A DNA stretch of 64,000 bases from Acidobacteriota bacterium (lineage in GTDB: Bacteria > Acidobacteriota > Vicinamibacteria > Vicinamibacterales > JAENWD01): the NCBI GenBank assembly GCA_046735235.1, contig JBKPSY010000027.1, forward strand, positions 2,389 through 66,388. Direction: 5' to 3'. Below, one piece after another: positions 15-46,258 of the stretch; within the stretch, counting starts at the first letter, position 1; every line of letters starts with the position of its first letter. The notes under the pieces were generated by a model, which searched no databases, was not told the DNA's origin, and saw only the letters and a list, made by a program, of their open reading frames with translations. A program made the position numbers and the translations under genes.

Positions 15-584
15 ATGCTGTTCGCGGCGCAGATGTTCGGCATCTTCGGCGTGCCGATCCCTGATGAGCTGCTGCTGACGATCGCCGGCGCGCTGGTGCG
101 CGAAGGCAAGCTGAATGCCTTCTGGACGGCCGTGGCCGCGGTCTCGGGGTGCCTGTGCGGCGTGACGCTCAGCTACACGCTCGGTCGCACCGTCGGCATC
201 ACCGCGCTGCGGCGAATCGTCCGCGTGCCTGACGCGGCTTTCGATCGCGCGCAGCGATGGTTCCATCGCATCGGGCGCTGGCTGCTCACGTTTGGATATT
301 TCATCCCCGGCGTGCGGCACTGCACCGCGATTGCCGCCGGCTCAGCGCCGCTGTCGTATCGCGAGTTCGCGCTCTTCTGCTACTCCGGCGGCGTGCTGTG
401 GTGCGCGGTGTTCCTGTCGCTCGGGTACATCACCGGACCGCACTGGCGACGCACCTGGAACACCCTTCACGACATGGGGCCGTACGTGTTCGTGCCGCTC
501 TTCGTCGTGCTTGCGCTGGTGCTGTATTTCAGCTGGCGGCGGACCCGCCAGGACACCACGTCGGCGCCGCCGGCGCAGGGCTGA
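15..584 (+). CDS. DedA / VTT-domain family inner-membrane protein
   Basis: 189-aa ORF with an N-terminal FGVPIPDELLL motif and several hydrophobic helices, a typical DedA layout. The true start could lie upstream of the window edge. Confidence 0.7.
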   Translation: MLFAAQMFGIFGVPIPDELLLTIAGALVREGKLNAFWTAVAAVSGCLCGVTLSYTLGRTVGITALRRIVRVPDAAFDRAQRWFHRIGRWLLTFGYFIPGVRHCTAIAAGSAPLSYREFALFCYSGGVLWCAVFLSLGYITGPHWRRTWNTLHDMGPYVFVPLFVVLALVLYFSWRRTRQDTTSAPPAQG

Positions 585-604: not shown

Positions 605-1888
605 TCAGGATCGCGCGATCCGATCGGCGCCGAAGTACGGACGAAGCGCCTCGGGAATCTCGATGCTGCCGTCCTTCTGCTGGTAGTTCTCGAGCACCGC
701 TATCAGCGTGCGGCCCACGGCGAGCCCCGACCCGTTCAACGTGTGCGCGAGCTCGGCCTTTCCGCTGCCGCCCGCGCGGAACTTGATGTTCGCGCGGCGC
801 GCCTGGAACGCCTCGGTGTTGGTGCAGGATGAAATCTCGCGATACACCTTCTGGCTCGGCAGCCAGACCTCGATGTCGTACGTCTTCGCGGACGCGAACC
901 CCATGTCGCCCGTGCAGAGAAGCACCGTGCGATAGGGCAGTCCCAGCAGCTGCAGCACTCGCTCCGCATTGCCGGTCAGGCGCTCGAGCTCGGCGTAGCT
1001 CTCGTCCGGCGTCGTGAACGACATCAGCTCGACCTTGTCGAACTGGTGCTGCCGGATCAGACCGCGGACGTCGGCGCCGTACGATCCCGCTTCACTGCGG
1101 AAGCATGGCGTGTACGCGCAGTAGCGCAGCGGCAAGGTGCGGCCGTCGAGGATCTCTCCGCGATACAAGTTCGTCAGCGGAACTTCGGCCGTCGGCACGA
1201 GGAACAGATCCCAATCGCCGCTGATCTTGAAGAGGTCCTGCTCGAACTTCGGCAGGTTGCCCGTGCCGGTGAGCGATGCGGTGTTCACGAGGAACGGCGG
1301 CTCCACTTCGGTGTAGCCGTGCTCCTTCGTGTGGAGGTCGAGCATGAAGTTGATGAGCGCACGGGCCAGGCGCGCGCCTTCCTTCATGAGCACGGTAAAC
1401 CGCGCGCGAGCGATCTTGGTGCCCCGTTCGAAGTCGAGGATCCCCAGCTCCGGTCCGAGGTCCCAATGCGCCTTTGGCTCGAAGTCGAAGGCGCGCGGCG
1501 TGCCCACGCGACGCACCTCGCGGTTGTCGTCGGCGCTTCTGCCCACCGGCACGTCGGCGTGCGGCACGTTGGGGAGGTGGAGCAGCAGGCCACGCCGCTC
1601 CTCTTCGAGCGCCTGGAGCGCCGCGTCGCGCTCCTTCACCTGATGACCCCGCGCGCGATTGGCCTCGACCAGCGCCGACACGTCCCCGCCGGCTTTCTTG
1701 TGCTTCGCCACCTCTTCGGCTGCAGCGTTCTGCTCGCGCTTCAGGCCTTCGACTTCGACGATCAGCGCGCGGCGGCGCTCGTCGAGCGGCACCAGCGGGG
1801 CCAGGATCGCGTCGGCGTCGGAACCGCGATTGTTCAGAGCAGCACGGACGAGGTCAGGGTGATCGCGCAGGACGGCCGGGTCGATCAT
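605..1888 (-). CDS. serS: seryl-tRNA synthetase
   Basis: 427 aa with an N-terminal coiled-coil arm and class II aaRS core motifs ([16 protein letters not shown]). The full-length architecture is unmistakable. Confidence 0.96.
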
Positions 1889-1906: not shown

Positions 1907-1964
1907 AACCGGGTCGGTCGGGTCGGGCGGGTCGGTCCGGTCACTCGGGTCGGGCGGGTCGGTC
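1907..1964. repeat. phased 9-bp GGTC iteron array (about 6 units)
   Basis: AACCGGGTC GGTCGGGTC GGGCGGGTC GGTCCGGTC ACTCGGGTC GGGCGGGTC GGTC, in the serS-galU divergent spacer. Confidence 0.8.
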
Positions 1965-1972
1965 TTGGAGGC

Positions 1973-2875
1973 GTGAGCGTGGCCGGAATCATTCGAAAAG
2001 CGGTATTTCCTGCGGCGGGACTCGGAACCCGGTTCCTGCCGGCGACGAAAGCGCAGCCGAAGGAGATGCTGCCGCTGGTCGACAAGCCGATCATCCAGTA
2101 CGGCGTCGAGGAAGCGCTCGCGTCAGGCATCGACAACATCCTGCTCGTCACGGGACGCGGCAAGAACGCCATCGAGGATCACTTCGACGTGTCGGTCGAG
2201 CTGGAGACGTTCCTCGAGGCGCGCGGAAAGCACGAGATGCTCGCCGAGGTCCGGAAGATCTCAAACCTCATCAACTTCTCGTATGTGCGGCAGGGCGAGC
2301 CGCTTGGACTCGGCCACGCCGTCCTCGTCACGCGCCATCTCGTCGGCGAGGAGCCGTTCGCGGTGATCCTCAGCGACGACGTGATCGACGCCGAGCCGCC
2401 TGCACTGAAGCAGATGATCGACGTGTTCTCTCGCGTCGACGGGCCGGTGCTGTGCGTGGAACGCGTGCCGCGCGAGCAGATCTCGAGCTACGGCGTCATC
2501 GCCTACGACGCGAACGCCTCCATGCCGAAAGGCACGTACCGTGTGACGGATCTCGTGGAGAAGCCGCCACGTGACGAAGCGCCGTCCGACCTCGCGATCA
2601 TCGGCCGCTACATCCTGACGCCCGACATCTTCCCGGCGCTGGAAGAGACCGCGCGCGACCGAAGCGGCGAGATTCAGCTCACGAACGGCCTGAAACGCCT
2701 GCTCGCCAAGCGGCCCATCTACGCGTGCGAGGTCACCGGGGTGCGACACGACACCGGCAACAAGCTCGGCTTCCTGAAAGCAGTCACGTACTTCGCGCTG
2801 CGGCGGCCGGACCTGGCGGGACCGTTCACCGACTACCTGACGGCGGTGCTGAAAGAGTCGAAAGTTCGTACGTAG
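1973..2875 (+). CDS. galU: UTP--glucose-1-phosphate uridylyltransferase
   Basis: 300 aa with N-terminal [26 protein letters not shown] and the VEKP motif. A GTG at 1979 has better spacing to the GGAGG at 1966-1970 and is an alternative start. Confidence 0.93.
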
Positions 2876-4971: not shown

Positions 4972-5820
4972 ATGGCCGGCGCGCTTCTGCTGGTTGCTAC
5001 GCCAATCGGAAATCTGGAAGACATCACGCTCAGGGCGCTGCGAGTCCTGCGTGAAGCCGATCTGATTGCCGCGGAGGACACGCGGCGCACAGGCAAGCTA
5101 CTTGCGCACTTCGGCATCACGACGAAGACCGTGAGCCTGCACGAGCACAACGAGCGACGGAAAATGTCGGCGCTGCTCGACCGCGTCCGCGCCGGCGCGA
5201 CGGTCGCCGTCGTCTCCGATGCCGGCATGCCGGTCATCTCGGATCCGGGCCGCGAGCTGATCCGGGAAGCGGTCTCCAGTGGCATCAAAGTAGAGATTGT
5301 TCCTGGGGCGTCTGCCCTAACAATGGCGATTACGGGGGCCTCCCTGGATGGCGACCTGACGACCTTCGCGGGCTTTCCACCGTCGAGAAGCGGCGAGCGG
5401 CGCCGATGGCTGGGTGATTTGAGTCGCCTGCCGGGGGCTCTCGTGCTGTTCGAGGCGCCTCATCGCCTGCGTCAGACCCTCGAGGACGTCCAAGCCGTGC
5501 TGGGAGACCGGCCGGTCGTTGTCGCCCACGAGCTGACAAAGCTTCATGAATCGTGGCACCGAGGTTTCGCGAGAGAGCTCCTGGCGAACCCGATGCTGCC
5601 GGAAAAAGGGGAGTTCACTCTGGTGATAGGACCGGGTTCCGGCGAGACGGAAGTACCGGCACTTCCCGACGCAGAGACGGTCTGGTATGAATTTGGTCGA
5701 TTAACCAAATTCGGCGGACGTACCCGAAAAGAGGCAATTGCAGAGCTGGCCCAAAGGTACCGCCTTCCCAGGCGCCAGATCTACGCGCTGGTCGAGGCGG
5801 CCAAGGAATCTGGTGAATGA
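4972..5820 (+). CDS. rsmI: 16S rRNA (cytidine1402-2'-O)-methyltransferase
   Basis: Carries LLLVATPIGNLEDITLRALRVLREADLIAAEDTR (tetrapyrrole-methylase fold of RsmI). ATG at 4972 was chosen because the track start at 4903 would overlap the divergent DUF885 gene. Confidence 0.9.
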   Translation: MAGALLLVATPIGNLEDITLRALRVLREADLIAAEDTRRTGKLLAHFGITTKTVSLHEHNERRKMSALLDRVRAGATVAVVSDAGMPVISDPGRELIREAVSSGIKVEIVPGASALTMAITGASLDGDLTTFAGFPPSRSGERRRWLGDLSRLPGALVLFEAPHRLRQTLEDVQAVLGDRPVVVAHELTKLHESWHRGFARELLANPMLPEKGEFTLVIGPGSGETEVPALPDAETVWYEFGRLTKFGGRTRKEAIAELAQRYRLPRRQIYALVEAAKESGE

Positions 5821-7193
5821 CCAAAATTGACATCCATGTGGTCGTCCTTGCCGCGGGCAAGGGCACCCGGATGAAGTCGGCGATCCCGAAAGTCCTGCAC
5901 AGGATTGCCGGCAAGCCGCTGCTCGACCACGTCCTGGCTGCCGCCGCGCCGCTTGGTCCGGCCTCCACGACCGTGGTGATAGGGCACCAGGCGGACATGA
6001 TTCGGGAGGCCTATGCCAACCGGCCGGATATGGGCTTCGTTGTCCAGGAGCCACAGCTGGGCACGGGACACGCCCTGCTCATGGCCGAACCCCGGCTCGA
6101 GGGCGCGGCCGGAACCGTCCTGCTGCTGTACGGCGATGTGCCGCTCCTGAGCACTGCCACGCTCCAGGCCCTTGTCGGCACCCACCGTGCTGAACACGCG
6201 AGCGCGACCGTCCTCACGGCGACCCTCGACCACCCCTTCGGCTACGGCCGCATCGTCCGCGCGGACGGTGCCATCGCGCGCATCGTCGAGGAACGAGATG
6301 CCTCGCTGGCGGAACGTGAGATTCGAGAGATCAACGCAGGCATCTACGCGTTCGAGCTCGGCCCGCTGTTCGACGCGATTCGCGGCATTGCGTCGGCCAA
6401 TGCGCAGGGCGAGTACTACCTGCCGGACCTGGTGAGCATCTACCGCGCGCGCGGTCTCGGCGTGACCACCGTGCCCGTCAAGAACGCCGACGAAATCCGC
6501 GGCATCAACAGCCGCGCGGAACTGGCTGAAGTGGAGCGCATCGTGCGACAGACCAAGAACGAAGCGTTGATGGCGGCCGGCGTGACGATCATCGATCCGG
6601 CGACGACCTACGTGCACCCGGACGTCACCATCGGCGCGGACACGGTGCTGCATCCGAATGTCTACCTCGAGGGCCACACGGCCATTGGCGCGGCCTGCGA
6701 GATCCACAGCGGCACGCGCATCGTCGACTCGACGCTCGGCGATCGAGTCACGGTGCGCAACTACTGCATCATCACCGAGTCATCCGTCGCCGCCGAAGCC
6801 GTGCTCGGACCGTTCGCCCACCTGCGTCCCTCGAGCGACGTGAAGGAAGGCGCCCACGTCGGCAACTTCGTCGAGCTGAAGAAGACGACGCTCGGCGCCG
6901 GGTCGAAGGCGAACCACCTGGCATACCTCGGCGACGCGACTATCGGCAACGGCGTCAACGTCGGAGCCGGAGTGATCACCTGTAACTACGACGGGACGAA
7001 GAAGCATCCCACCGTCGTCAAGGACGGCGCGTTCATCGGAAGCGACTCCGCGCTCGTCGCCCCCGTGACGGTCGGCGAGGGCGCCTACGTCGCCGCAGGA
7101 TCGACGATCACCGAGGATGTTCCGGCCGGCGCTCTCGGCATCGCGCGGGGCCGCCAGGTCAATAAAGAGGGATGGGCCAGGAAGAAACGGTAA
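5817..7193 (+). CDS. glmU: bifunctional UDP-N-acetylglucosamine pyrophosphorylase / glucosamine-1-phosphate N-acetyltransferase
   Basis: 458 aa with N-terminal LAAGKGTRMKS and a C-terminal left-handed beta-helix of hexapeptide repeats. ATGA overlap with the rsmI stop. Confidence 0.96.
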   Translation: MTKIDIHVVVLAAGKGTRMKSAIPKVLHRIAGKPLLDHVLAAAAPLGPASTTVVIGHQADMIREAYANRPDMGFVVQEPQLGTGHALLMAEPRLEGAAGTVLLLYGDVPLLSTATLQALVGTHRAEHASATVLTATLDHPFGYGRIVRADGAIARIVEERDASLAEREIREINAGIYAFELGPLFDAIRGIASANAQGEYYLPDLVSIYRARGLGVTTVPVKNADEIRGINSRAELAEVERIVRQTKNEALMAAGVTIIDPATTYVHPDVTIGADTVLHPNVYLEGHTAIGAACEIHSGTRIVDSTLGDRVTVRNYCIITESSVAAEAVLGPFAHLRPSSDVKEGAHVGNFVELKKTTLGAGSKANHLAYLGDATIGNGVNVGAGVITCNYDGTKKHPTVVKDGAFIGSDSALVAPVTVGEGAYVAAGSTITEDVPAGALGIARGRQVNKEGWARKKR

Positions 7194-7309
7194 AGTGCGA
7201 AATGCGAAGTGCGAAGTGCAAAGTAGCTGGCGGGTGGCTCGTTGCCCAGTTCACTGTTCACTTCGTATTCCGCACTTCACTTTGCAGTTCGCAGTTGGCA
7301 TTTAGCACT
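7194..7309. repeat. 31-bp-arm inverted repeat built from GCGAAGT-type heptamers (glmU-glmS spacer)
   Basis: The arms 7194-7224 and 7279-7309 are complementary at 27 of 31 positions. The left arm is itself a tandem GTGCGAA/GCGAAGT repeat. Confidence 0.8.
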
Positions 7310-12333: not shown

Positions 12334-14891
<2,558 letters not shown>

Positions 14892-14910
14892 GGTTTCTTG
14901 GGCCGTGTAG

Positions 14911-14983
14911 GGGTCGGCGGCCAGGGCCAGGGGCCAGCGTGACTCGTGTGACGCGCTGAATCCTGATCCCTGCTCCCTGGACC
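14911..14983. repeat. imperfect hairpin with CCAGGG / GATCAGG tandem-unit arms (gyrB-gyrA spacer)
   Basis: GGGTCGGCGGCCAGGGCCAGGGGCCAG ... CCTGATCCCTGCTCCCTGGACCC. Confidence 0.65.
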
Positions 14984-18756
<3,773 letters not shown>

Positions 18757-19039
18757 GTGGCGATGACCTCGAGTGGTGTGGGTGCCGCCCGGAACCGGTG
18801 TTTCCTTCTTAGTTCCAGGAGTTTTAGAGGATCAAGAAATTATACTGAAAATAGGTGCTGTCGAAAAGCACAATCTGAAAGTTTTAGTCCTTACGGGACA
18901 ATAACTTAGGCTGTGCAAGTTTCTGTGGATGAGGGGCCGTGCGTCCTGGCGCTGCAGACTGTGGAAAACCCGCCGTCTCAGCCGGTCCACAGCCGGGCTT
19001 ACCCGGGGACCGGTGGAAGCCTGTGGAAAGCGCGAAATC
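18757..19039. other. candidate oriC segment (AT-rich unwinding region plus DnaA boxes) in the dnaA-dnaN spacer
   Basis: About 18801-18925 is conspicuously AT-rich in a GC-rich genome. It is followed by same-orientation boxes TGTGGATGA (18924-18932), TGTGGAAAA (18960-18968) and TGTGGAAAG (19022-19030). Confidence 0.6.
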
Positions 19040-20580: not shown

Positions 20581-20612
20581 TTTTCCACAATTTTTTCCAC
20601 AGGTGTGGAAAA
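20581..20612. promoter_or_regulatory. cluster of three DnaA boxes upstream of dnaA
   Basis: TTTTCCACA (20581-20589), TTTTCCACA (20593-20601) and inverted TGTGGAAAA (20604-20612). All match the relaxed consensus TTWTNCACA. Confidence 0.7.
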
Positions 20613-20943: not shown

Positions 20944-20988
20944 ACCCGGGTCTCGCAGGTCCGGCGGGTCAGCCGGGTCGGTCAGGTC
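20944..20988. repeat. phased 9-bp GGTC iteron array (5 units)
   Basis: ACCCGGGTC TCGCAGGTC CGGCGGGTC AGCCGGGTC GGTCAGGTC, between rpmH and rnpA. Confidence 0.8.
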
Positions 20989-24039: not shown

Positions 24040-24711
24040 GTGGCCGGGAAGAACCTTCACGATCGCCTGACCAGGCGCCTGCGCAAGGCCGGCCTCTCTC
24101 CCGACCGCGCGCTGCTCAACGGCCTCGAGCAGTATTTCCAGCTATTGGCGCGCTGGAACGCCAAAATCAACCTCACCGCCTTTTCTCTGGCGGATCCTAA
24201 CGACGAGGCGATCGACCGGTTGCTCGTCGAGCCCGTGGTCGCTGCGCGCCATCTGACCTCTGCGACCGCGATCATCGACATCGGGTCTGGCAGTGGCTCG
24301 CCAGCAATTCCGCTCCGGTTGGCGCTCGGACCCGCACGACTCACGCTCGTCGAAGCGAAGACGCGCAAAGCAGTGTTCCTTGTCGAGGCGCTGAGGCACC
24401 TCGAGATTGGCGATGGCTCGGTTGAGACCGCGCGCTTCGAGCAACTCCTGACTCGTCCAGAGCTTCATGAGGCGTTCGATGTGTTGACGATCCGGGCTGT
24501 CCGGGTCGAGGCACGAACGCTTCTGACGCTTCAAGCGTTCTTGCGCCCGGGCGGGCGGCTACTGTGGTTCCGCGGCCCAGGAGGACCCGATATCCCATCA
24601 GAAACCATCGTCCCCCTTTCTTGGGCCGCGACATATCCGCTTGTCGAAAGTCTCCGAAGCCGGCTGGTTGTTCTGACGAAGCAGAGCCATCACAGTCGGA
24701 CCAAGGCGTGA
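24040..24711 (+). CDS. rsmG: 16S rRNA (guanine527-N7)-methyltransferase
   Basis: 223 aa with LLARWNAKINLT and the SAM motif IDIGSGSGSPAIPL. Its GidB position before parAB is canonical. Confidence 0.9.
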   Translation: MAGKNLHDRLTRRLRKAGLSPDRALLNGLEQYFQLLARWNAKINLTAFSLADPNDEAIDRLLVEPVVAARHLTSATAIIDIGSGSGSPAIPLRLALGPARLTLVEAKTRKAVFLVEALRHLEIGDGSVETARFEQLLTRPELHEAFDVLTIRAVRVEARTLLTLQAFLRPGGRLLWFRGPGGPDIPSETIVPLSWAATYPLVESLRSRLVVLTKQSHHSRTKA

Positions 24712-24727
24712 CGTTCCACGTGGAACG
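24712..24727. promoter_or_regulatory. parS: parS centromere site 1
   Basis: CGTTCCACGTGGAACG, a perfect 16-bp palindrome matching the parS core GTTNCACGTGNAAC. It abuts the rsmG stop codon. Confidence 0.85.
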
Positions 24728-24729
24728 GG

Positions 24730-24836
24730 TGCTCAGGTCTCCTCAGGTCTAGCAGGTCCAGCAGGTCTAACCGGTCGGTCAGGTCTAACCGGTCGGTCGA
24801 ATGCGCGTTCCGGTCGAGCGGTTGGTCCCGGTCGGA
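24730..24836. repeat. 9-bp GGTC iteron array, left arm of the rsmG-parA spacer
   Basis: ..CTCAGGTC TAGCAGGTC CAGCAGGTC TAACCGGTC GGTCAGGTC TAACCGGTC GGTC.., becoming degenerate toward 24836. Confidence 0.75.
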
Positions 24837-24865: not shown

Positions 24866-24881
24866 TGTTCCACGTGGAACG
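24866..24881. promoter_or_regulatory. parS: parS centromere site 2
   Basis: TGTTCCACGTGGAACG, with the same 14-bp core as site 1. It is centred between two inverted 9-bp repeat arrays. Confidence 0.85.
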
Positions 24882-24930
24882 TTTCATCGCGTGGTGAGAG
24901 TTCATTCGATGCGCGCCGACGACGACCTTT

Positions 24931-25015
24931 AGACCGATTCGGCCCGATGACCAGCTAATCCGACCCGTACGACCGGTTCGACCCGTTCGACCTGCTCGAC
25001 CTGTTTGACCTGGCT
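24931..25015. repeat. 9-bp GGTC iteron array in inverted orientation, right arm of the rsmG-parA spacer
   Basis: The reverse complement reads GAGCCAGGTC AAACAGGTC GAGCAGGTC GAACGGGTC GAACCGGTC GTACGGGTC... Confidence 0.75.
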
Positions 25016-25081
25016 CTCCCGCCGCTCTATGCTTTCGAAGCAAAAGGTGTGAAGAACCGCAAATAGGTCGTGTGACCTAAT

Positions 25082-25879
25082 ATGGCCAGAATCGTCGCGG
25101 TTACCAATCAAAAGGGCGGCGTGGGAAAGACGACGACCGCCATCAATCTCGCAGCCTCACTCGCACTTGCGGACCAGAGAGTGTTGCTCGTCGACCTCGA
25201 CCCGCAGGGCAACATGACCAGCGGCGTGGGGTTGCGCGGGCAGCAGGCGCCTGGCGGCACGGTCTACAGCGCGCTCGAGAGCGACGCGGGCGTCGACCCA
25301 GCCAGCTTCGTTATCCCAAGCGCCGTCGACAACCTGAAGGTCGTGCCCGCCGACGGGAGCCTCACCGGGGCCGAGATCGAGCTCGTCGGGCTCACCGACC
25401 GCGAGCGCCGGCTGCGGCGTCTGCTCGAGCCCCTGCGCGCGGACTTCGACTGGATCTTCATCGACTGTCCGCCCTCGCTCGGCCTGCTCACGCTCAACGC
25501 GCTCGTCGCCGCCGACGCGGTGTTGATTCCCCTCCACTGCGAGTACTTCGCGCTCGAGGGCCTCGCGGCGCTCGTGTCGACGATGAGGCGCGTGCGCGTG
25601 TCGCTGAATCCGTCGCTCGACATCGAAGGCGTGCTGCTGACGATGTACGACGAGCGCACCAACCTCGGCCAGCAGGTCGCGCGCGACGTGCGCGAGTTCT
25701 TCAAGGAGAAGGTCTACACCACGGTGATCCCGCGCAACGTGCGGCTCGGCGAGGCGCCCAGCCACGGCACGCCGGTCGTGTTGTACGACGCGAAGTCGCG
25801 CGGCGCGGAGGCCTATCTCGCGCTGGCACGCGAGGTGCTCGAACGCAGCGCGAAGCCGGAACTGCAGAGCGCGCAGTGA
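25082..25879 (+). CDS. parA: chromosome partitioning ATPase ParA/Soj
   Basis: 265 aa with the deviant Walker A NQKGGVGKTTT. Confidence 0.96.
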   Translation: MARIVAVTNQKGGVGKTTTAINLAASLALADQRVLLVDLDPQGNMTSGVGLRGQQAPGGTVYSALESDAGVDPASFVIPSAVDNLKVVPADGSLTGAEIELVGLTDRERRLRRLLEPLRADFDWIFIDCPPSLGLLTLNALVAADAVLIPLHCEYFALEGLAALVSTMRRVRVSLNPSLDIEGVLLTMYDERTNLGQQVARDVREFFKEKVYTTVIPRNVRLGEAPSHGTPVVLYDAKSRGAEAYLALAREVLERSAKPELQSAQ

Positions 25880-33255: not shown

Positions 33256-33323
33256 GTCCATGGGGTTATGAGTCCATGGGTCCATGGGCAAGAACCCCCC
33301 ATGCACCCATGCACCCATGCACC
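33256..33323. repeat. hairpin whose arms are tandem 9-mers (GTCCATGGG x3 versus CCCATGCAC x3), atpA-atpG spacer
   Basis: The left units GTCCATGGG pair 8 of 9 with the right units CCCATGCAC. A T5 run follows at 33331-33335. Confidence 0.75.
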
Positions 33324-36157: not shown

Positions 36158-36158
<1 letters not shown>

Positions 36159-36234
36159 GGACCAGGGATCAGGATCCAGGGTCGCCGTGACACGAGCGTG
36201 CTGGCCCTGGCCCTGAGCCCTGATCCTGCGATCC
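36158..36234. repeat. imperfect hairpin with CCAGGG / GATCAGG tandem-unit arms (atpC-wzm spacer)
   Basis: GGGACCAGGGATCAGGATCCAGGGTC ... GGCCCTGGCCCTGAGCCCTGATCCTG. It uses the same unit vocabulary as 14911-14983. Confidence 0.65.
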
Positions 36235-37029: not shown

Positions 37030-38366
37030 TGAGCGCCCCTGCGATTGACGCCCGCGACGTCACCAAGGTCTACCGCCGGTACGCGCACAAGAAACAGTTC
37101 GCGACGCTGAAGAGCGCGCTGATGTCGCGGAGCCTCATCCGCGACCTGAAGCCGGATGAGACGTTCGCAGCCCTGCGCGGCGTGTCGTTCACCGTCCCGT
37201 CGGGCTGTACGTACGGGATCGTCGGCCGCAACGGATCCGGCAAGAGCACGATGCTGAAGTGCGTCGCCGGCATCACGCGCCCGACGAGCGGCACCGTGAC
37301 GGTGAACGGTCGTGTTTCGGCGCTGATCGAGCTCGGCGCGGGGTTTCACCCCGAGATTTCCGGCCGAGAGAACGTCTTCATCAACGGCATCATGCTTGGC
37401 CTCTCGAAGAAGGAGATCACGAGACGCTTCGACGAGATCGTCGAGTTCGCCGAACTCGAGGACTTCATCGACGCGCCGGTGAAGACGTACTCCTCCGGCA
37501 TGTACATGCGCCTCGGGTTCGCCGTGGCGATCCACGTGGACCCGGACGTGTTGCTCGTGGACGAGGTGCTCGCGGTCGGCGACGAGGGCTTCACGCACAA
37601 GTGCCTCGACAAGTTCGGCGAGTTTCGACGCCGTGGGAAGACGATTCTGCTCGTCACGCATTCCCTCGGCCTGGTCGAACGGTTCTGCGACGAGGCGCTC
37701 TGGATCGATGGCGGGGTCGGCCGGGCACACGGCGATCCGCGACGCGTGGTCGGCGCCTACGTCACCGATGTCGAGAAGACCGAGGAAGACGCGTTGGCCA
37801 GCGGAGACCAGCGTGCGATGGAACAGGCCGGCACCGCGCCGGCGCCGGATCTCACCGTGGCGGACCCTGTCGCGGCCAGCGAGACGCCGGACGACATGTT
37901 CCGCGCGACCGAAGGCCGATGGGGATCGCGCGAGATCGAGATCGCCGGCGTGACCCTGTTCGGAACCGACGGCGAGCCGTCTCACGTTTTCCACACCGGC
38001 GACGCGATGACGATCCAGCTGGCCGTGTCGGCCGCCAAGCCGATGACCGACTTCGCATTCGGCGTGGCAATCTTCAACGCGGATGGCGTCTGCTGCTACG
38101 GCACCAACACCTCGGTCGAGGAGCTGGCCGCGCGCAGCTTCGAGGGCCAGGGCGACGTGCGGTTCGTCATCGAAAACCTGGACCTCATCGAAGGCACCTA
38201 CAAGATAGACGTCGCGGCGCACTCGCGTGACGGCTATCCGTACGATTACCACCGCCTGCTCTATACCTTCCGCGTGAAGTCGCGGACGAAGGACGTGGGC
38301 GTCTTCCGGCCGCGCCACCGCTGGGAATTCTCGCCGTCGGTGCAGTTCGGGCCGGCGCTGAAGTGA
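37029..38366 (+). CDS. wzt: polysaccharide export ABC ATPase with C-terminal Wzt_C-like glycan-binding domain
   Basis: 445 aa. It is the 3' part of track ORF 36198..38366. Walker A GRNGSGKST, signature YSSGMYMRLGFA, and a C-terminal beta-sandwich-like extension of about 180 aa. TGATG coupling to wzm. Confidence 0.9.
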   Translation: MSAPAIDARDVTKVYRRYAHKKQFATLKSALMSRSLIRDLKPDETFAALRGVSFTVPSGCTYGIVGRNGSGKSTMLKCVAGITRPTSGTVTVNGRVSALIELGAGFHPEISGRENVFINGIMLGLSKKEITRRFDEIVEFAELEDFIDAPVKTYSSGMYMRLGFAVAIHVDPDVLLVDEVLAVGDEGFTHKCLDKFGEFRRRGKTILLVTHSLGLVERFCDEALWIDGGVGRAHGDPRRVVGAYVTDVEKTEEDALASGDQRAMEQAGTAPAPDLTVADPVAASETPDDMFRATEGRWGSREIEIAGVTLFGTDGEPSHVFHTGDAMTIQLAVSAAKPMTDFAFGVAIFNADGVCCYGTNTSVEELAARSFEGQGDVRFVIENLDLIEGTYKIDVAAHSRDGYPYDYHRLLYTFRVKSRTKDVGVFRPRHRWEFSPSVQFGPALK

Positions 38367-38919: not shown

Positions 38920-41900
38920 ATGCCTTCCTCGACGTCCCTCTCTCTTCAGGCCCTGCTCCGATCGGCGGCCGGCCGCGCCGGATTCGCCCAGGATCGCGGC
39001 ACGATTTCCGGGCTGACGCCGGCAGGCCGCGCGCTGTACGCGGCGCTTCGCGCGCATCAGGCGGGGGACCGATTAATCGTGCTGGTCGTCCCCACCGACG
39101 CGGACGCAGACGAGACCGCGGCCGACACGCGATTCTTCCTGGCGGCGCTCGAGGGGCTCGACGACCGCGCGGCCGCAGCCGCGGTGCTGCCGTTGCCCTC
39201 GCACGAGGTGGACCCGTATCGCGGGCTGTCGCCACACTTGCACGTGGCGTCCGCACGTGCGCGGGTGCTTGCGTCGATCGCATCCGGCGACGTGCGTGTC
39301 GTCGTCGCGTCGGCGCCGGCGCTGCTGCCTCGCCTGGTCCCGCCGCGTCGGCTGGCGTCGGCCGTGCTCGCGCTGAGACTCGGGGCCGAAGTCGATCCGC
39401 AGCTGCTCGGCGAGCATCTCGTCGAGTCTGGATTCAGCCGCGAAGATCCCGCCGACGAGCACGGAGAGTTCGCCGTGCGCGGCGGTATCGTCGACGTTTT
39501 CCCGCCCGGCGACGATCAGCCCGTCCGCATCGAGTTCGCCGGAGATTCGATCGAATCGATCCGCCGGTACGACCCGTCGACCCAGCGATCGACGGCCGCC
39601 ATCGACCAGGTCACGATCCTTCCGATCCGCGAACGCCTCGGGCAATCAGGCGCGCCGGCCGACCCGACGCTGACGCTCGAAGCCTCGGTCATCGACTACT
39701 TCACGACACGCCGCACGCCGGTGTATCTCGTCGGTGAGCTCGAGCAGGCACGCGCGGCCGCGGAGAAGTTCCTCGAGCAGATCGCGGCAAGCTTCGAAAC
39801 CGTGGCGGCGACAGCGAACAAGGGCGCCGGTCCCGTCGCGCCCCCGGAGCGGCTCTTCGTGTCGGCCGAAGACATTTTCGGGCGGCTGTCGAATGCCGTG
39901 CGCCTCGAGGCGTTGTCGGTCGAAGGCGGTCCGGAGACGGCCACCGTGCATCACGTCCGCTGTCAGGTGGTGCCCGAGTTCAAGGGGCGCATCCAGGACT
40001 TCATCGACGCGCTGCGCAAGAGTCGCAGCGACGGCGAGCAGGCGATCTTCGTGGCGTCCACCACCGGACGCGCCGAGCGGATGATCGAACTCGCACGCGA
40101 CTACCAGGTCGTCGCCACGCCGGCCGACCGCACCGAGGACGCGCACTTCGCGGCGCTGCTCGTCACCGTCGGGCACCTGGCCCGCGGGTTCCGCCTGCCT
40201 GACGGCCAGCTGACGATATACGCCGAAGCCGACGTCTTCGAAGAGGAGCGTCGCGGGCCGGAGCAGCGACGCAGGGCCGCCACGCGTGCGTTTCTCTCCG
40301 ATCTGCGCGATCTCAAAGTCGGCGACTTCGTGGTGCACGTCGATCACGGCATCGGCGTCTTCGTCGGGTTGAAGCAGCTGTCGGTCGCGCCCGGCGAGCC
40401 GCCGCAGGAGTTCATGGAGCTCCGCTACTCGGGCGAGGACAAGTTGTTCGTGCCGGTCGAGCGGCTCGACCTCGTCCAGAAGTACACCGGCGCCGCCCGT
40501 CCGCCCGTCGACCGGCTTGGCGGCCAGACGTGGGAGAAGGCCAAGACGCGCGTCAAGAAGGCGATGCGCGACATGGCCGAAGAGCTGCTCAAGCTCTACG
40601 CCGCGCGGAAAGCCGTTCCCGGCCACGCGTTCGCCGCAGACTCGCACTGGCAGCAGGAATTCGAAGGCGGCTTTCCGTACGATCTGACGCCGGACCAGTC
40701 GACGGCGATTGCCGACATCAAGACCGACATGGAAACCGCCTCGCCGATGGATCGGCTGCTCTGCGGCGACGTCGGCTACGGCAAGACGGAAGTCTCGATG
40801 CGCGCCGCGTTCAAGGCCGTCATGGACGGCAAACAGGTCGCCTTTCTCGCGCCGACGACGATCCTCGCGTTCCAGCACCTGCGGACGCTGACCGAGCGGT
40901 TTGCGGGCTTCCCGGTGCGGATCGACATGATCAGCCGGTTTCGCACGAAGGCGGAACAGAAAGTCGTGCTCGAGGATCTCGCCGCCGGCAAGATCGAGGT
41001 CATCGTCGGCACCCATCGGCTGCTCTCGAAGGACGTCCAGTTCCGCGATCTCGGCCTGCTCGTGGTGGACGAAGAGCAGCGATTCGGTGTCGCCCACAAG
41101 GAGCGGATCAAGCAGCTCCGGAAACGCGTGGACGTCCTGACGATGACGGCCACCCCCATCCCGCGGACGCTCAACATGTCGCTCGTCGGCATTCGCGACA
41201 TGTCGGTGATCGAGACGCCGCCGAAGGACCGCCTGTCGATCCAGACGCACGTGGTGAAGTTCGACGCGGAAGTCATTCGCCGCGCGATTCGCCACGAGCT
41301 GGAACGCGGCGGGCAGGTCTACGTCGTGCACAACCGCGTCGAGTCGATCTTCTCGATCGCGAACCTGATCACGCGGCTCGTGCCCGAAGCGAAGATCGCC
41401 ATCGGCCACGGTCAGATGGGAGAGGAGCAGCTCGAGAAGACGATGCTGGACTTCATGGCGCACAAGTACGACGTGCTCCTCGCCACGACGATCGTCGAGA
41501 ACGGCCTCGACATCCCCAACGCGAACACGATGATCATCAATCGCGCCGACCGGTACGGCCTGTCGCAGCTCTACCAGCTGCGCGGCCGCGTCGGGCGATC
41601 CGATCGTCCGGCGTACGCCTACCTGCTGATCCCGCCGGAAGAATCGCTGTCGCCGGTCGCGAAGAAGCGGCTGGCGGCCATCAAGGAATTCAGCGATCTG
41701 GGCAGCGGCTTCCGTGTCGCCGCGCTCGACCTCGAGATCCGCGGCGCCGGCAACCTGCTCGGCGGCGAGCAGAGCGGCCATATGGAGACGGTGGGCTTCG
41801 AGACGTACACGAAGCTGCTCGAGGAAACCGTCCGCGAGCTCAAGGGCGAAGAAATCGAAGACGACATCCGGGCGACGGTGAACCTCCGGGTGGACCTGAA

Positions 41901-42522
41901 GATCGACGACGCCTACATCCCCGACATGAACCAGCGGCTGATGGTCTACCGCCGCATCGCGTCCGCCCGCAGCGAGGACGAGCTCGAGCGGGCCGTCGCC
42001 GAGGTGCGCGACCGCTACGGCCCGCCGCCGGAGTCAATTCTCAACCTCGCCGATTACGGGCGCATCCGCGTCATGGCGGACCAGCTGGGGCTCGAAACCA
42101 TCGATCGCGAAGGCGACCGCGTCGTGTTCCGCTTCGGCCCGAAAACCCCGCTCGACCCGGCGCGCCTGGTGACGTTCCTGGAGCGCCGCAAGGACGTGAC
42201 GCTGGTGCCGCCGGCGGGGATGCGGTTGGATTTGAAGGCTGGGCAGCCGGGTCTGACAGGTCAAACAGGTCACACGGGTCAAACGGGTCAGACAGGTCGG
42301 GCGGGTCAGCCGGGCCGCGGCGGGCCTGGCTCGTCGCGGCGAGGGCGTGGGCCGGCCGAGGCCGTGGCCCCAGCCTCGTGGTGGACAGCCCGGGCCACGG
42401 CGGGGGAAGTGACCGCCGGCTTCACGAAGGCGGAGATCCTGAAGCCCAAGGCGGAAGACCCTCGCGGCCCCAGCGGCGTCTTTACTCGAGTGGGGGGCCT
42501 GTTGAGCGAGCTCCTCCCGTGA
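38920..42522 (+). CDS. mfd: transcription-repair coupling factor Mfd
   Basis: 1200 aa with a UvrB-homology N-terminus, an RNAP-interaction domain, an SF2 translocase (GDVGYGKTEV, DEEQRFG) and a TRCF C-terminal domain. It carries an in-frame Gly-X-Y repeat insertion at about 42245-42316. Confidence 0.96.
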   Translation: MPSSTSLSLQALLRSAAGRAGFAQDRGTISGLTPAGRALYAALRAHQAGDRLIVLVVPTDADADETAADTRFFLAALEGLDDRAAAAAVLPLPSHEVDPYRGLSPHLHVASARARVLASIASGDVRVVVASAPALLPRLVPPRRLASAVLALRLGAEVDPQLLGEHLVESGFSREDPADEHGEFAVRGGIVDVFPPGDDQPVRIEFAGDSIESIRRYDPSTQRSTAAIDQVTILPIRERLGQSGAPADPTLTLEASVIDYFTTRRTPVYLVGELEQARAAAEKFLEQIAASFETVAATANKGAGPVAPPERLFVSAEDIFGRLSNAVRLEALSVEGGPETATVHHVRCQVVPEFKGRIQDFIDALRKSRSDGEQAIFVASTTGRAERMIELARDYQVVATPADRTEDAHFAALLVTVGHLARGFRLPDGQLTIYAEADVFEEERRGPEQRRRAATRAFLSDLRDLKVGDFVVHVDHGIGVFVGLKQLSVAPGEPPQEFMELRYSGEDKLFVPVERLDLVQKYTGAARPPVDRLGGQTWEKAKTRVKKAMRDMAEELLKLYAARKAVPGHAFAADSHWQQEFEGGFPYDLTPDQSTAIADIKTDMETASPMDRLLCGDVGYGKTEVSMRAAFKAVMDGKQVAFLAPTTILAFQHLRTLTERFAGFPVRIDMISRFRTKAEQKVVLEDLAAGKIEVIVGTHRLLSKDVQFRDLGLLVVDEEQRFGVAHKERIKQLRKRVDVLTMTATPIPRTLNMSLVGIRDMSVIETPPKDRLSIQTHVVKFDAEVIRRAIRHELERGGQVYVVHNRVESIFSIANLITRLVPEAKIAIGHGQMGEEQLEKTMLDFMAHKYDVLLATTIVENGLDIPNANTMIINRADRYGLSQLYQLRGRVGRSDRPAYAYLLIPPEESLSPVAKKRLAAIKEFSDLGSGFRVAALDLEIRGAGNLLGGEQSGHMETVGFETYTKLLEETVRELKGEEIEDDIRATVNLRVDLKIDDAYIPDMNQRLMVYRRIASARSEDELERAVAEVRDRYGPPPESILNLADYGRIRVMADQLGLETIDREGDRVVFRFGPKTPLDPARLVTFLERRKDVTLVPPAGMRLDLKAGQPGLTGQTGHTGQTGQTGRAGQPGRGGPGSSRRGRGPAEAVAPASWWTARATAGEVTAGFTKAEILKPKAEDPRGPSGVFTRVGGLLSELLP
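42245..42316 (+). repeat. 9-bp GGTC iteron array (8 units) in frame inside mfd
   Basis: AGCCGGGTC TGACAGGTC AAACAGGTC ACACGGGTC AAACGGGTC AGACAGGTC GGGCGGGTC AGCCGGGCC. It translates to GQPGLTGQTGHTGQTGQTGRAGQPG. Confidence 0.85.
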
Positions 42523-46130: not shown

Positions 46131-46258
46131 GGGGAAATGGGAAAGCGGAAAATAGCGAATAGGGAATACCGAATAGGGAATACCGAATAGGAATAGGGAA
46201 AGCCGCACCGAGTGGCGGCTCCGTGCCTTGTCTCCCTATTCGCTATTCCCTATTTCCC
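46131..46258. repeat. AT-richer hairpin with tandem GAATAGGGAATACC units
   Basis: The left arm is GGGAAATGGGAAAGCGGAAAATAGCGAATAGGGAATACCGAATAGGGAATACCGAATAGGAATAGGGA. The right arm TCTCCCTATTCGCTATTCCCTATTTCCC contains the GT2 stop codon. There is a central AGCCGC...GCGGCT mini-hairpin. Confidence 0.7.

Follow-up and report, generated by a model that had tools for sequence, protein, structure and literature searches.

Phased GGTC arrays in a Vicinamibacterales origin region: origin iterons or members of a dispersed intergenic repeat family?

Short direct repeats that are found close to dnaA and parAB raise the question whether they serve replication or partition of the chromosome or belong to a repeat family that also occurs elsewhere. 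This question is posed by a stretch of 64,000 nucleotides from an Acidobacteriota bacterium of the order Vicinamibacterales (assembly GCA_046735235.1, contig JBKPSY010000027.1, positions 2,389 to 66,388; hereafter the window), which is the origin region of a chromosome of 66.5% GC and in which an initial annotation had described five phased arrays of a 9-bp unit containing GGTC as protein-recognised iterons with a link to the origin. The reading favoured here, to which we assign a probability of roughly 0.6, is that the arrays are not origin iterons but belong to a dispersed intergenic repeat family of several Vicinamibacterales lineages, which resembles the repetitive extragenic palindromes (REP) and the short tandem repeats termed STRR, and that the core of the unit would serve as a docking site for a protein.

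Unit structure, phasing and turnover of the arrays

The five arrays are real and were recovered where they had been annotated or a few bases off (Table 1). Units of the form NNN-C-(A/G/C)-GGTC follow one another head to tail, with 5-7 exact units per array in the window. With exact GGTC as the only demand, 30 units of the window fall into runs of at least three at period 9, whereas the other periods between 4 and 15 give no such run; nor did any run of at least three at period 9 arise in 100 first-order Markov simulations. Equally, 30 GGTC pairs are found at offset 9 in the window versus 4-6 at each of the offsets 7, 8, 10, 11 and 12. A search blind to the core, which accepted any four or more invariant columns across at least five units at lag 9, recovered the same arrays with the invariant columns C.GGT(C) in addition to one conserved coding repeat. 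The existence of five phased 9-bp arrays is thus confirmed by exact-core runs, by simulation and by the core-blind search. That only the C-N-GGTC core and the phase are conserved holds as well: position 4 is C in 30/30 units, though not demanded by the search, position 5 is A, G or C, and positions 1-3 are near random among the 30 units. The early exclusion of CRISPR equally stands, as the units of 9 bp follow head to tail, whereas CRISPR repeats of 23-50 bp come with unique spacers of similar length.

The arrays grow and shrink via local duplication and loss of whole units, as follows from the likeness of units within an array, from 18-bp periods and from differences in copy number. Between units of one window array, 2.46 of the 4 variable positions differ (62%), compared with 2.83 between units of different arrays, a value within arrays that was reached in 3 of 2000 permutations; in the set of metagenome contigs described below, the corresponding figures are 1.61 within and 2.41 between arrays (among the matches listed). 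Tandem Repeats Finder (TRF) also reports periods of 18 bp, and 18-bp duplications as well as array-specific flavours of the unit can be seen. The initial statement that the arrays do not result from recent duplication of one unit is therefore borne out by the 62% divergence, but needs amendment in that local duplication does contribute. Within the arrays, the variable positions have diverged almost to saturation, whereas the core is unchanged; as neutral decay would not yield such a pattern, C-N-GGTC is kept by selection or by a templated process, and the short core is clearly under constraint.

Persistence at orthologous sites and dispersal over unrelated loci

Contigs of relatives were chosen by close homologs of YidC and Mfd, of which those bearing source names derive from metagenome-assembled genomes of Vicinamibacterales, and show synteny with the window. 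Relatives of 76-90% protein identity carry arrays in the rpmH-rnpA spacer, upstream of parA and in the mfd linker. The lineage of L120 and L244 (83% identity in YidC, 90% in Mfd) carries arrays with changed variable bases in the rpmH-rnpA spacer, directly 5' of the parA promoter and in the mfd linker. At 76% identity, L246 possesses a sense array upstream of rnpA and a +/- inverted pair between parS and the parA promoter, with many units of the form GATC[AG]GGTC and a spacing that is often 10 bp; an array in the orientation of array 4 is present at the parA site in both L120 and L246. At the rpmH-rnpA site 5 units are found in the window, 9 in L218 (a contig of about 90% identity to the window), 5 plus 2 off-phase units in L120 and about 5, of the GATCGGGTC type, in L246. 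Orthologous arrays thus differ in having 5 to 9 units, in a spacing of 9 or 10 bp and in the variable bases. When the five rnpA-proximal units of the window and L120 were compared by hand, 16/20 variable positions differed and 0/25 core positions, in line with the conserved core of the initial annotation. Across relatives, position, orientation and core are thus kept, while unit number, spacing and the other bases are not. The arrays therefore persist at the same intergenic sites over long divergence, their variable bases randomised and their core intact. In L122 and L123, with 64-67% identity in YidC, no GGTC arrays were found.

Beyond the orthologous region, metagenome contigs were scanned with a pattern that demanded that adjacent units differ, which excludes plain minisatellites and yielded at least 120 loci; contigs below 0.62 GC were set aside, as they mostly carry long collagen-like Gly-X-Y genes. 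Arrays of 5-14 variable units occur on at least 79 contigs of 0.62-0.74 GC, which add up to 387 kb and come nearly all from soil or rhizosphere samples. Comparison of the contigs with the window by tblastx is noisy at this GC content; among the matches listed, a scope that applies to all counts in this paragraph, only L218 is truly orthologous and the other 78 of the 79 contigs are not. Three array contigs could be placed by homology or by the names of homologs, all of them in or near Vicinamibacterales. The flanking genes code for MacB/FtsX permeases, a nuclease, an amidohydrolase, a pyridoxal phosphate enzyme, an ATP-dependent DNA ligase, MurD, ABC transporters, a sulfatase, a peptidase M19, an outer-membrane protein, aspartokinase, alpha-amylase, NAD synthase, a response regulator and dihydrodipicolinate synthase (DHDPS). 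A second common flavour of the unit, [AG]GGC[AG]GGTC, adjoins the aspartokinase gene, the closest named homologs of which belong to Vicinamibacterales. Arrays were placed with a gene caller based on GC content at third codon positions, and of those with both flanking genes called, 26 lie between tandem, 7 between convergent and 6 between divergent genes; in the tandem case GGTC is on the sense strand in 13 cases and on the antisense strand in 13. Arrays lie at a median of 13.5 nt from the upstream stop codon and of 74.5 nt from the downstream start codon. Most arrays are consequently situated just after a stop codon, and every spacer type and both orientations are represented. Furthermore, no more than 60 bp separate 12 of 83 arrays from a locus end, mostly a contig end, which fits breaks of the assembly caused by a dispersed repeat. 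Every member of the family is made up of 5-14 short tandem units with the form NNN-C-(A/G/C)-GGTC, each 9 bp or at times 10 bp long. A generic scan for five units in a collection of genomes gave, among its matches listed, mostly near-identical 9-bp minisatellites of Actinomycetes and others. As a separate observation, L167 and L243, which are parts of one 284-kb metagenome contig of about 0.5 GC, contain a very long collagen-like Gly-X-Y region with dozens of GGTC-phased runs that match the same pattern and are unrelated to the intergenic family.

A subfamily has a composite structure, in which a GGTC array and an inverted GACC array surround a module of about 75 bp, as found at five loci (L238, L247, L126, L146 and L213; Table 1). 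The module aligns over the five loci with 70% column identity and includes the boxes GGGTT[CG]ACCC and GTGGCCGT[CT]C. L247 lacks the element in its asd-lysC spacer, which there measures 31 bp, whereas the corresponding spacer of L238, which contains it, is about 220 bp long; no clear target-site duplication is visible in this one pair of a filled and an empty site. Homologous copies with terminal inverted repeats at unrelated loci, as in a miniature inverted-repeat transposable element (MITE), are restricted to this subfamily, and conserved flanks of single arrays were not found outside it. The presence of the module at unrelated loci and the filled versus empty asd-lysC site show that the composite form spread or was lost as a unit, MITE-like, by some transposition or recombination. 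The L238 composite folds with -100 kcal/mol (z = -9.0). In the window, arrays 3 and 4 form the left and right arms of an inverted pair in the rsmG-parA spacer, which folded as DNA reaches z = -3.65. Three of the five composite copies lie upstream of lysine-pathway genes (lysC once and dapA twice, the dapA copies being orthologous), which is either coincidence or a sign of a regulatory cassette.

Inspection and TRF revealed in the window and its relatives other intergenic elements with the layout of array, centre and inverted array, each with a unit of its own. Five of them are listed in Table 1, four of which fold better than shuffled sequences (z -2.9 to -4.9). Unrelated units are present in the gyrA-gyrB spacers of L120, L122 and L123, and equally in the same spacers of other lineages. 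The GGTC family is the most widespread member of a general repeat habit of these genomes.

Recognition of the core and alternative explanations

A DNA-binding protein probably docks at the C-N-GGTC core. Single arrays fold no better than shuffled sequences (z 0.0, -0.1 and -0.8; -2.3 for the mfd array), a search of Rfam gave no match, and both results argue against an RNA element. Together with independence of orientation and a spacing of about one helical turn, they suggest readout on double-stranded DNA. Each unit would dock one subunit of a protein that binds double-stranded DNA and coats the array cooperatively, for which ribbon-helix-helix (RHH) proteins on arrays of tetramer boxes can be taken as a model; the reader could be a nucleoid protein, a regulatory protein or an enzyme that mobilises the elements. 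Protein-read arrays are represented by the heptad arrays of the omega protein of pSM19035. Equally, ParG dimers coat ACTC tetramer boxes, direct or inverted, upstream of parFG on plasmid TP228 (PMC3130281). The GGTC arrays resemble these systems, in which a 4-bp core is directly read, spacers are regular, short and variable, 8-20 boxes stand in direct or inverted order, and the arrays directly precede a parA-type operon; the architectural likeness to a ParG-type operator is displayed by arrays 3 and 4 at the parA locus only. On the other hand, the ParG and omega arrays are confined to a plasmid partition or operator locus and have periods of 8 or 7 bp, unlike the GGTC arrays, which are chromosomal and GC-rich, have a period of 9-10 bp and are found at many unrelated loci. 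ParG-type arrays are the best model for a reading of GGTC arrays by a protein. A small RHH gene was not noted beside parAB, although no systematic search for RHH genes was made. As a bolder proposal, which we hold to be doubtful, an undescribed abundant protein of Vicinamibacterales with sequence-specific DNA binding might polymerise on phased C-N-GGTC units genome-wide, with the effect that intergenic DNA, the parAB control region included, is organised or insulated.

Several points weigh against a dispersed, protein-read family. Mixed spacing of 9 and 10 bp is unusual for rigid cooperative filaments, and among the flanking genes examined no candidate for the binding protein was identified and no gene is linked to the arrays. 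Crude gene calling placed 34 arrays inside open reading frames (ORFs), many of which are probably over-extended. The density of arrays is 0.078 per kb in the window versus 0.021 per kb for extra arrays on metagenome contigs, about 3-4 fold higher, and a modest local enrichment near the origin may exist. No transposase was found among the examined genes next to arrays, paired arrays included, and none of the RAYT (IS200/IS605-like) type among about 30 annotated flanking genes. Furthermore, since many intergenic tandem and inverted repeats consist of unrelated units, a general sequence-independent repeat-forming process exists, of which the GGTC family may be no more than the most successful product.

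The principal alternative, possible although in our judgement unlikely, regards the arrays as selfish or neutral repeats without host function, MITE-like elements with array ends and their solo remnants that are maintained by slippage, in which the core would be kept only as recognition site of a mobilising enzyme or via conversion between copies. The composite form with its homologous central module at unrelated loci speaks for such repeats, as do the presence or absence of elements among related genomes, the location of arrays where insertion is least harmful (after stop codons and in a disordered linker), the equal frequency of the two orientations and the variation in copy number. However, four lineages, with protein identity as low as 76%, have solitary arrays with intact core at corresponding sites, and such persistence with saturated variable positions can hardly be accounted for unless constraint acts continuously at each locus. 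In addition, the flanking genes examined include no transposase, and the filled and empty pair of L238 and L247 shows no evident target-site duplication.

A function as iterons of the origin or as centromere-like sites of parABS, bound by a replication or partition protein, is improbable. The gene map bears out the distances first given, in that dnaA/parAB have three of the five arrays within 5 kb, a fourth at about 17 kb and the fifth at about 22 kb, and the density of arrays in the window is above that of other contigs. In addition, the parA-proximal pair flanks parS, abuts the parA promoter and is kept in relatives, a layout like that of the tetramer-box operator and centromere of ParG upstream of parFG (PMC3130281). 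Nevertheless, the link to the origin that had been annotated is not supported. All arrays lie outside the DnaA-box cluster, the nearest about 330 bp from the boxes and past rpmH and the others 4-22 kb away, with one inside mfd and another in the serS-galU spacer 17 kb from dnaA. In the initial annotation, the likeness to iterons lay in phased direct repeats near a replication gene that a protein would recognise. Replication iterons, which a Rep initiator binds, typically measure 17-22 bp and are found inside the origin beside an AT-rich unwinding element; the GGTC units are 9 bp long, and their arrays are dispersed and lie outside the DnaA-box cluster. The ParA partner is a canonical 293-aa helix-turn-helix ParB with parS sites, so no extra centromere is needed. 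Identical arrays stand beside unrelated genes on dozens of contigs, in all spacer types including convergent ones and in both orientations. A spread of arrays beyond the origin is in kind what the initial annotation had named as evidence against its own proposal, here observed on dispersed metagenome contigs among the matches listed.

At the parA control region, the last unit of array 4 supplies the TTGACC -35 hexamer of the predicted sigma-70-type parA promoter, which is separate from the array in L246. A palindrome close to the parA start codon, AGGTC-N4-GACCT, presents the array tetramer as an inverted pair and is kept in L120 (about 13315-13330), L246 (about 4985-4998) and L123 (GGTC-ATTC-GACC). 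It could be an operator or a hairpin of the 5' untranslated region. As the array abuts or reaches into the -35 hexamer and the same tetramer forms the palindrome at the start codon, the factor that binds the core might, speculatively, also modulate expression of parAB.

Elements acting at the RNA level, such as leader, inter-cistronic or 3'-end signals (terminators, stabilising hairpins or modulators of ribosome binding), are very improbable as an explanation. In their favour, the inverted pairs of L238 and of the window fold very strongly, arrays abut stop codons, and the last CAGGTC unit lies 6-7 nt before the rnpA ATG, where AGGT could act in a Shine-Dalgarno-like manner. Single arrays without special fold, on the contrary, and the equal number of sense and antisense arrays, although GGUC-rich and GACC-rich RNAs are very different, argue against RNA signals, as do the lack of a T-tract terminator and of any Rfam match. 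The least credible alternative, collagen-like Gly-X-Y coding repeats in unannotated genes, is suggested by the translation of the mfd array as Gly-X-Thr, with GGT-CNN-NCN reading as Gly-X-Y, and by the true collagen-like genes behind many lower-GC matches among those listed, but is contradicted by the location of arrays 1-4 between a stop codon and the first possible start or between divergent starts, by the 10-bp spacing in L246, which would break any frame, and by the occurrence of both orientations. Candidate explanations based on a G-quadruplex, Dam/GATC, a DnaA-trio, Rho rut-sites or anti-Shine-Dalgarno pairing were rejected, as the features they need are not present in all arrays or depend on orientation.

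The copy inside mfd deserves separate consideration. Array 5 is translated in frame as Gly-X-Thr/Ala repeats in the C-terminal part of mfd. Mfd homologs of the order share at this place a hypervariable linker, located after "VTLVPP.G.RLDL" and before the C-terminal block "SWWTARATAGEV...GVFTRVGGLLSELL", which at 76% identity or more contains Gly-X-X runs that vary in length and sequence and in more distant relatives a stretch rich in Pro/Ala/Ser/Arg. At the DNA level, the mfd gene of L244, a 90% ortholog, has a GGTC array at the same linker position. Array 5 is thus tolerated in frame in a disordered linker and is no signal inside mfd. Tandem repeats of Borg elements are said to create disordered protein segments. 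The mfd copy is alike in being a tandem repeat of a multiple of three that adds a variable Gly-X-X stretch to a low-complexity linker, and the family is unlike these repeats in that one of the five window arrays is coding and the GGTC family is mainly intergenic. The mfd gene of L245, a 77% ortholog, carries at 13333-13383 a 9-bp array with the core AGGTGCG, translated as Gly-Ala-Ser/Ile repeats; the lineage-specific cores that it suggested were dismissed, since L246, similarly distant, keeps GGTC at intergenic sites, and the L245 array is an isolated coding repeat. As an observation on the protein itself, window positions 42196-42522 correspond to Mfd residues of about 1093-1200, that is the hypervariable linker followed by the extra block 'SWWTARATAGEV..GFTKAEIL..DPRGP.GVFTRVGGLLSELL', and this extra conserved C-terminal block falls beyond the region matched by Mfd family models.

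Neighbouring features and meaning of the repeat family

The features of the window and of the composite loci are collected in Table 1. To the 3' side of array 1, a GGAGG ribosome-binding site and the galU start follow, and a scan of this array for promoters and terminators found nothing. Array 3 has on its left one or two additional units at an offset of 10 bp and irregular decayed units up to about 24836, and irregular distal units of array 4 reach to about 24923. Two lone TTTTCCACA boxes are found off the main DnaA-box cluster, at 18960 in the dnaA-dnaN spacer and at 37987. The two parS-like sites of the rsmG-parA spacer, which are identical (ACGTTCCACGTGGAAC/GT), lie 156 bp apart; L120 and L246 have the first site only. 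In L122, which is devoid of GGTC arrays, parS is flanked in a 900-bp rsmG-parA spacer (13020-13930) by a G-rich low-complexity stretch and, on the opposite side, by the C-rich complement of this stretch, a layout analogous to the inverted GGTC/GACC pair of the window. Equally without GGTC arrays, L248 carries the inverted heptamers AGGGTTC x7 (1312-1362) and GAACCTA x6 (1813-1855), which flank a small gene of the 23S_rRNA_IVP family (PF05635).

Table 1. Coordinates of the GGTC arrays, of other repeat elements and of landmarks (window positions unless a contig is named)
Feature	Position	Strand	Remarks
Array 1	1907-1964	+	6 exact units, cores 1912-1960; fills divergent serS-galU spacer
Array 2	20944-20988	+	5 units, cores 20949-20988; fills spacer from rpmH stop to rnpA ATG, with its end 5 nt from the ATG
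Array 3	24730-24836	+	6 exact units, cores 24746-24794; after rsmG and first parS-like site
Array 4	24923-25015	- (GACC on +)	6 exact units, cores 24962-25010
Array 5	42241-42325	+	7 exact units (42250-42307), 10 with one mismatch per core; in frame in mfd
Composite element, L238	module 349-422		asd-lysC
Composite element, L247	12079-12150		upstream of dapA
Composite element, L126			upstream of dapA
Composite element, L146
Composite element, L213
AAGTGCG inverted-array element	7193-7290		glmU-glmS spacer
GGCCAGG inverted-array element	14905-14985		gyrA-gyrB spacer
GTCCATGG inverted-array element	33256-33323		atpA-atpG spacer
CCAGGG inverted-array element	36158-36228		after atpC
AATAGGG inverted-array element	46151-46254		conserved in L244 (17377-17509)
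serS	605-1888	-	window gene map
galU	1973-2875	+	window gene map
dnaA	19040-20401	-	window gene map; dnaN also in window
rnpA	20994 (ATG) to 21344		window gene map; rpmH, rnpA and yidC in this region
rsmG	24040-24711		window gene map
parA	25082-25879		window gene map; parB also in window
mfd	38920-42522		window gene map
DnaA-box cluster	20581-20612		three TTTTCCACA boxes between dnaA and rpmH; likely oriC/dnaA promoter
First parS-like site GTTCCACGTGGAAC	24713-24726		outside GGTC repeat family; context only
Second parS-like site GTTCCACGTGGAAC	24869-24882		roughly midway between inverted arrays 3 and 4
Predicted sigma-70-type parA promoter, TTGACC-N17-TATGCT	25005-25033	+	conserved in L120 and L246
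Palindrome AGGTC-N4-GACCT	25065-25078		3-4 nt before parA start codon; unique in window

Repeats of a comparable kind have been recognized in other phyla. REP and BIME sequences of Enterobacteria and Pseudomonas are single imperfect palindromes of 20-40 bp that are linked to RAYT transposase genes. The GGTC arrays are equally dispersed and extragenic, occur mostly at 3' gene ends and within operons, have a lineage-specific sequence and composite inverted forms and differ in presence or absence among relatives; in contrast to REP and BIME, the unit is a 9-bp direct repeat, and only inverted pairs fold while single arrays do not. The STRR heptamers of cyanobacteria are intergenic short tandem repeats. 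Furthermore, Beggiatoaceae, cyanobacteria and Bacteroidetes possess lineage-specific short direct repeats between genes, the TAACTGA heptamers, and in the BOGUAY genome most TAACTGA sets point toward and abut a start codon (MacGregor 2015, PMC4679880). Like these heptamers, with their hundreds of arrays, the GGTC family comprises many arrays of a short unit (7-9 bp), which are overwhelmingly intergenic and lie by unrelated, often essential genes, show insertions and deletions of whole units between close relatives, as at rpmH-rnpA, are lineage-restricted, have occasional copies in variable regions of ORFs and are suspected to be bound by a protein. In contrast, the heptamers consist of near-identical units, whereas the GGTC family fixes only five of nine positions, is found in another phylum and at another GC content and has some copies that are inverted pairs around a conserved module; unlike TAACTGA, it also shows no preferred orientation relative to start codons.

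Searching the literature by motif and by taxon yielded no account of such arrays. The kind is already known as lineage-specific intergenic short repeats, while the GGTC family itself is apparently undescribed; new are its partly specified unit, the period of 9-10 bp, the absence of an orientation bias and the composite inverted forms. A word of caution follows for annotation, as phased repeats near dnaA and parAB should not be read as origin elements from one window. For soil metagenomes, the family explains breaks of the assembly and offers variable-number markers for strain typing. Equally, variable Gly-X-X linkers of essential proteins, Mfd among them, can arise from such repeats.

To our knowledge, Vicinamibacterales are among the most abundant bacteria in soil and almost nothing is known of their genome biology. 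The constrained five-base core provides a handle on a new DNA-binding protein or mobilising enzyme, for which a synthetic array, for example (NNNCNGGTC)6, can be used as bait. If a protein that polymerises on the arrays genome-wide indeed existed, it would be a chromosome-wide analogue of the RHH and centromere-binding proteins of plasmids, and the other tandem and inverted repeats would be a sign of a lineage-specific mechanism by which intergenic DNA is assembled from short tandem units.

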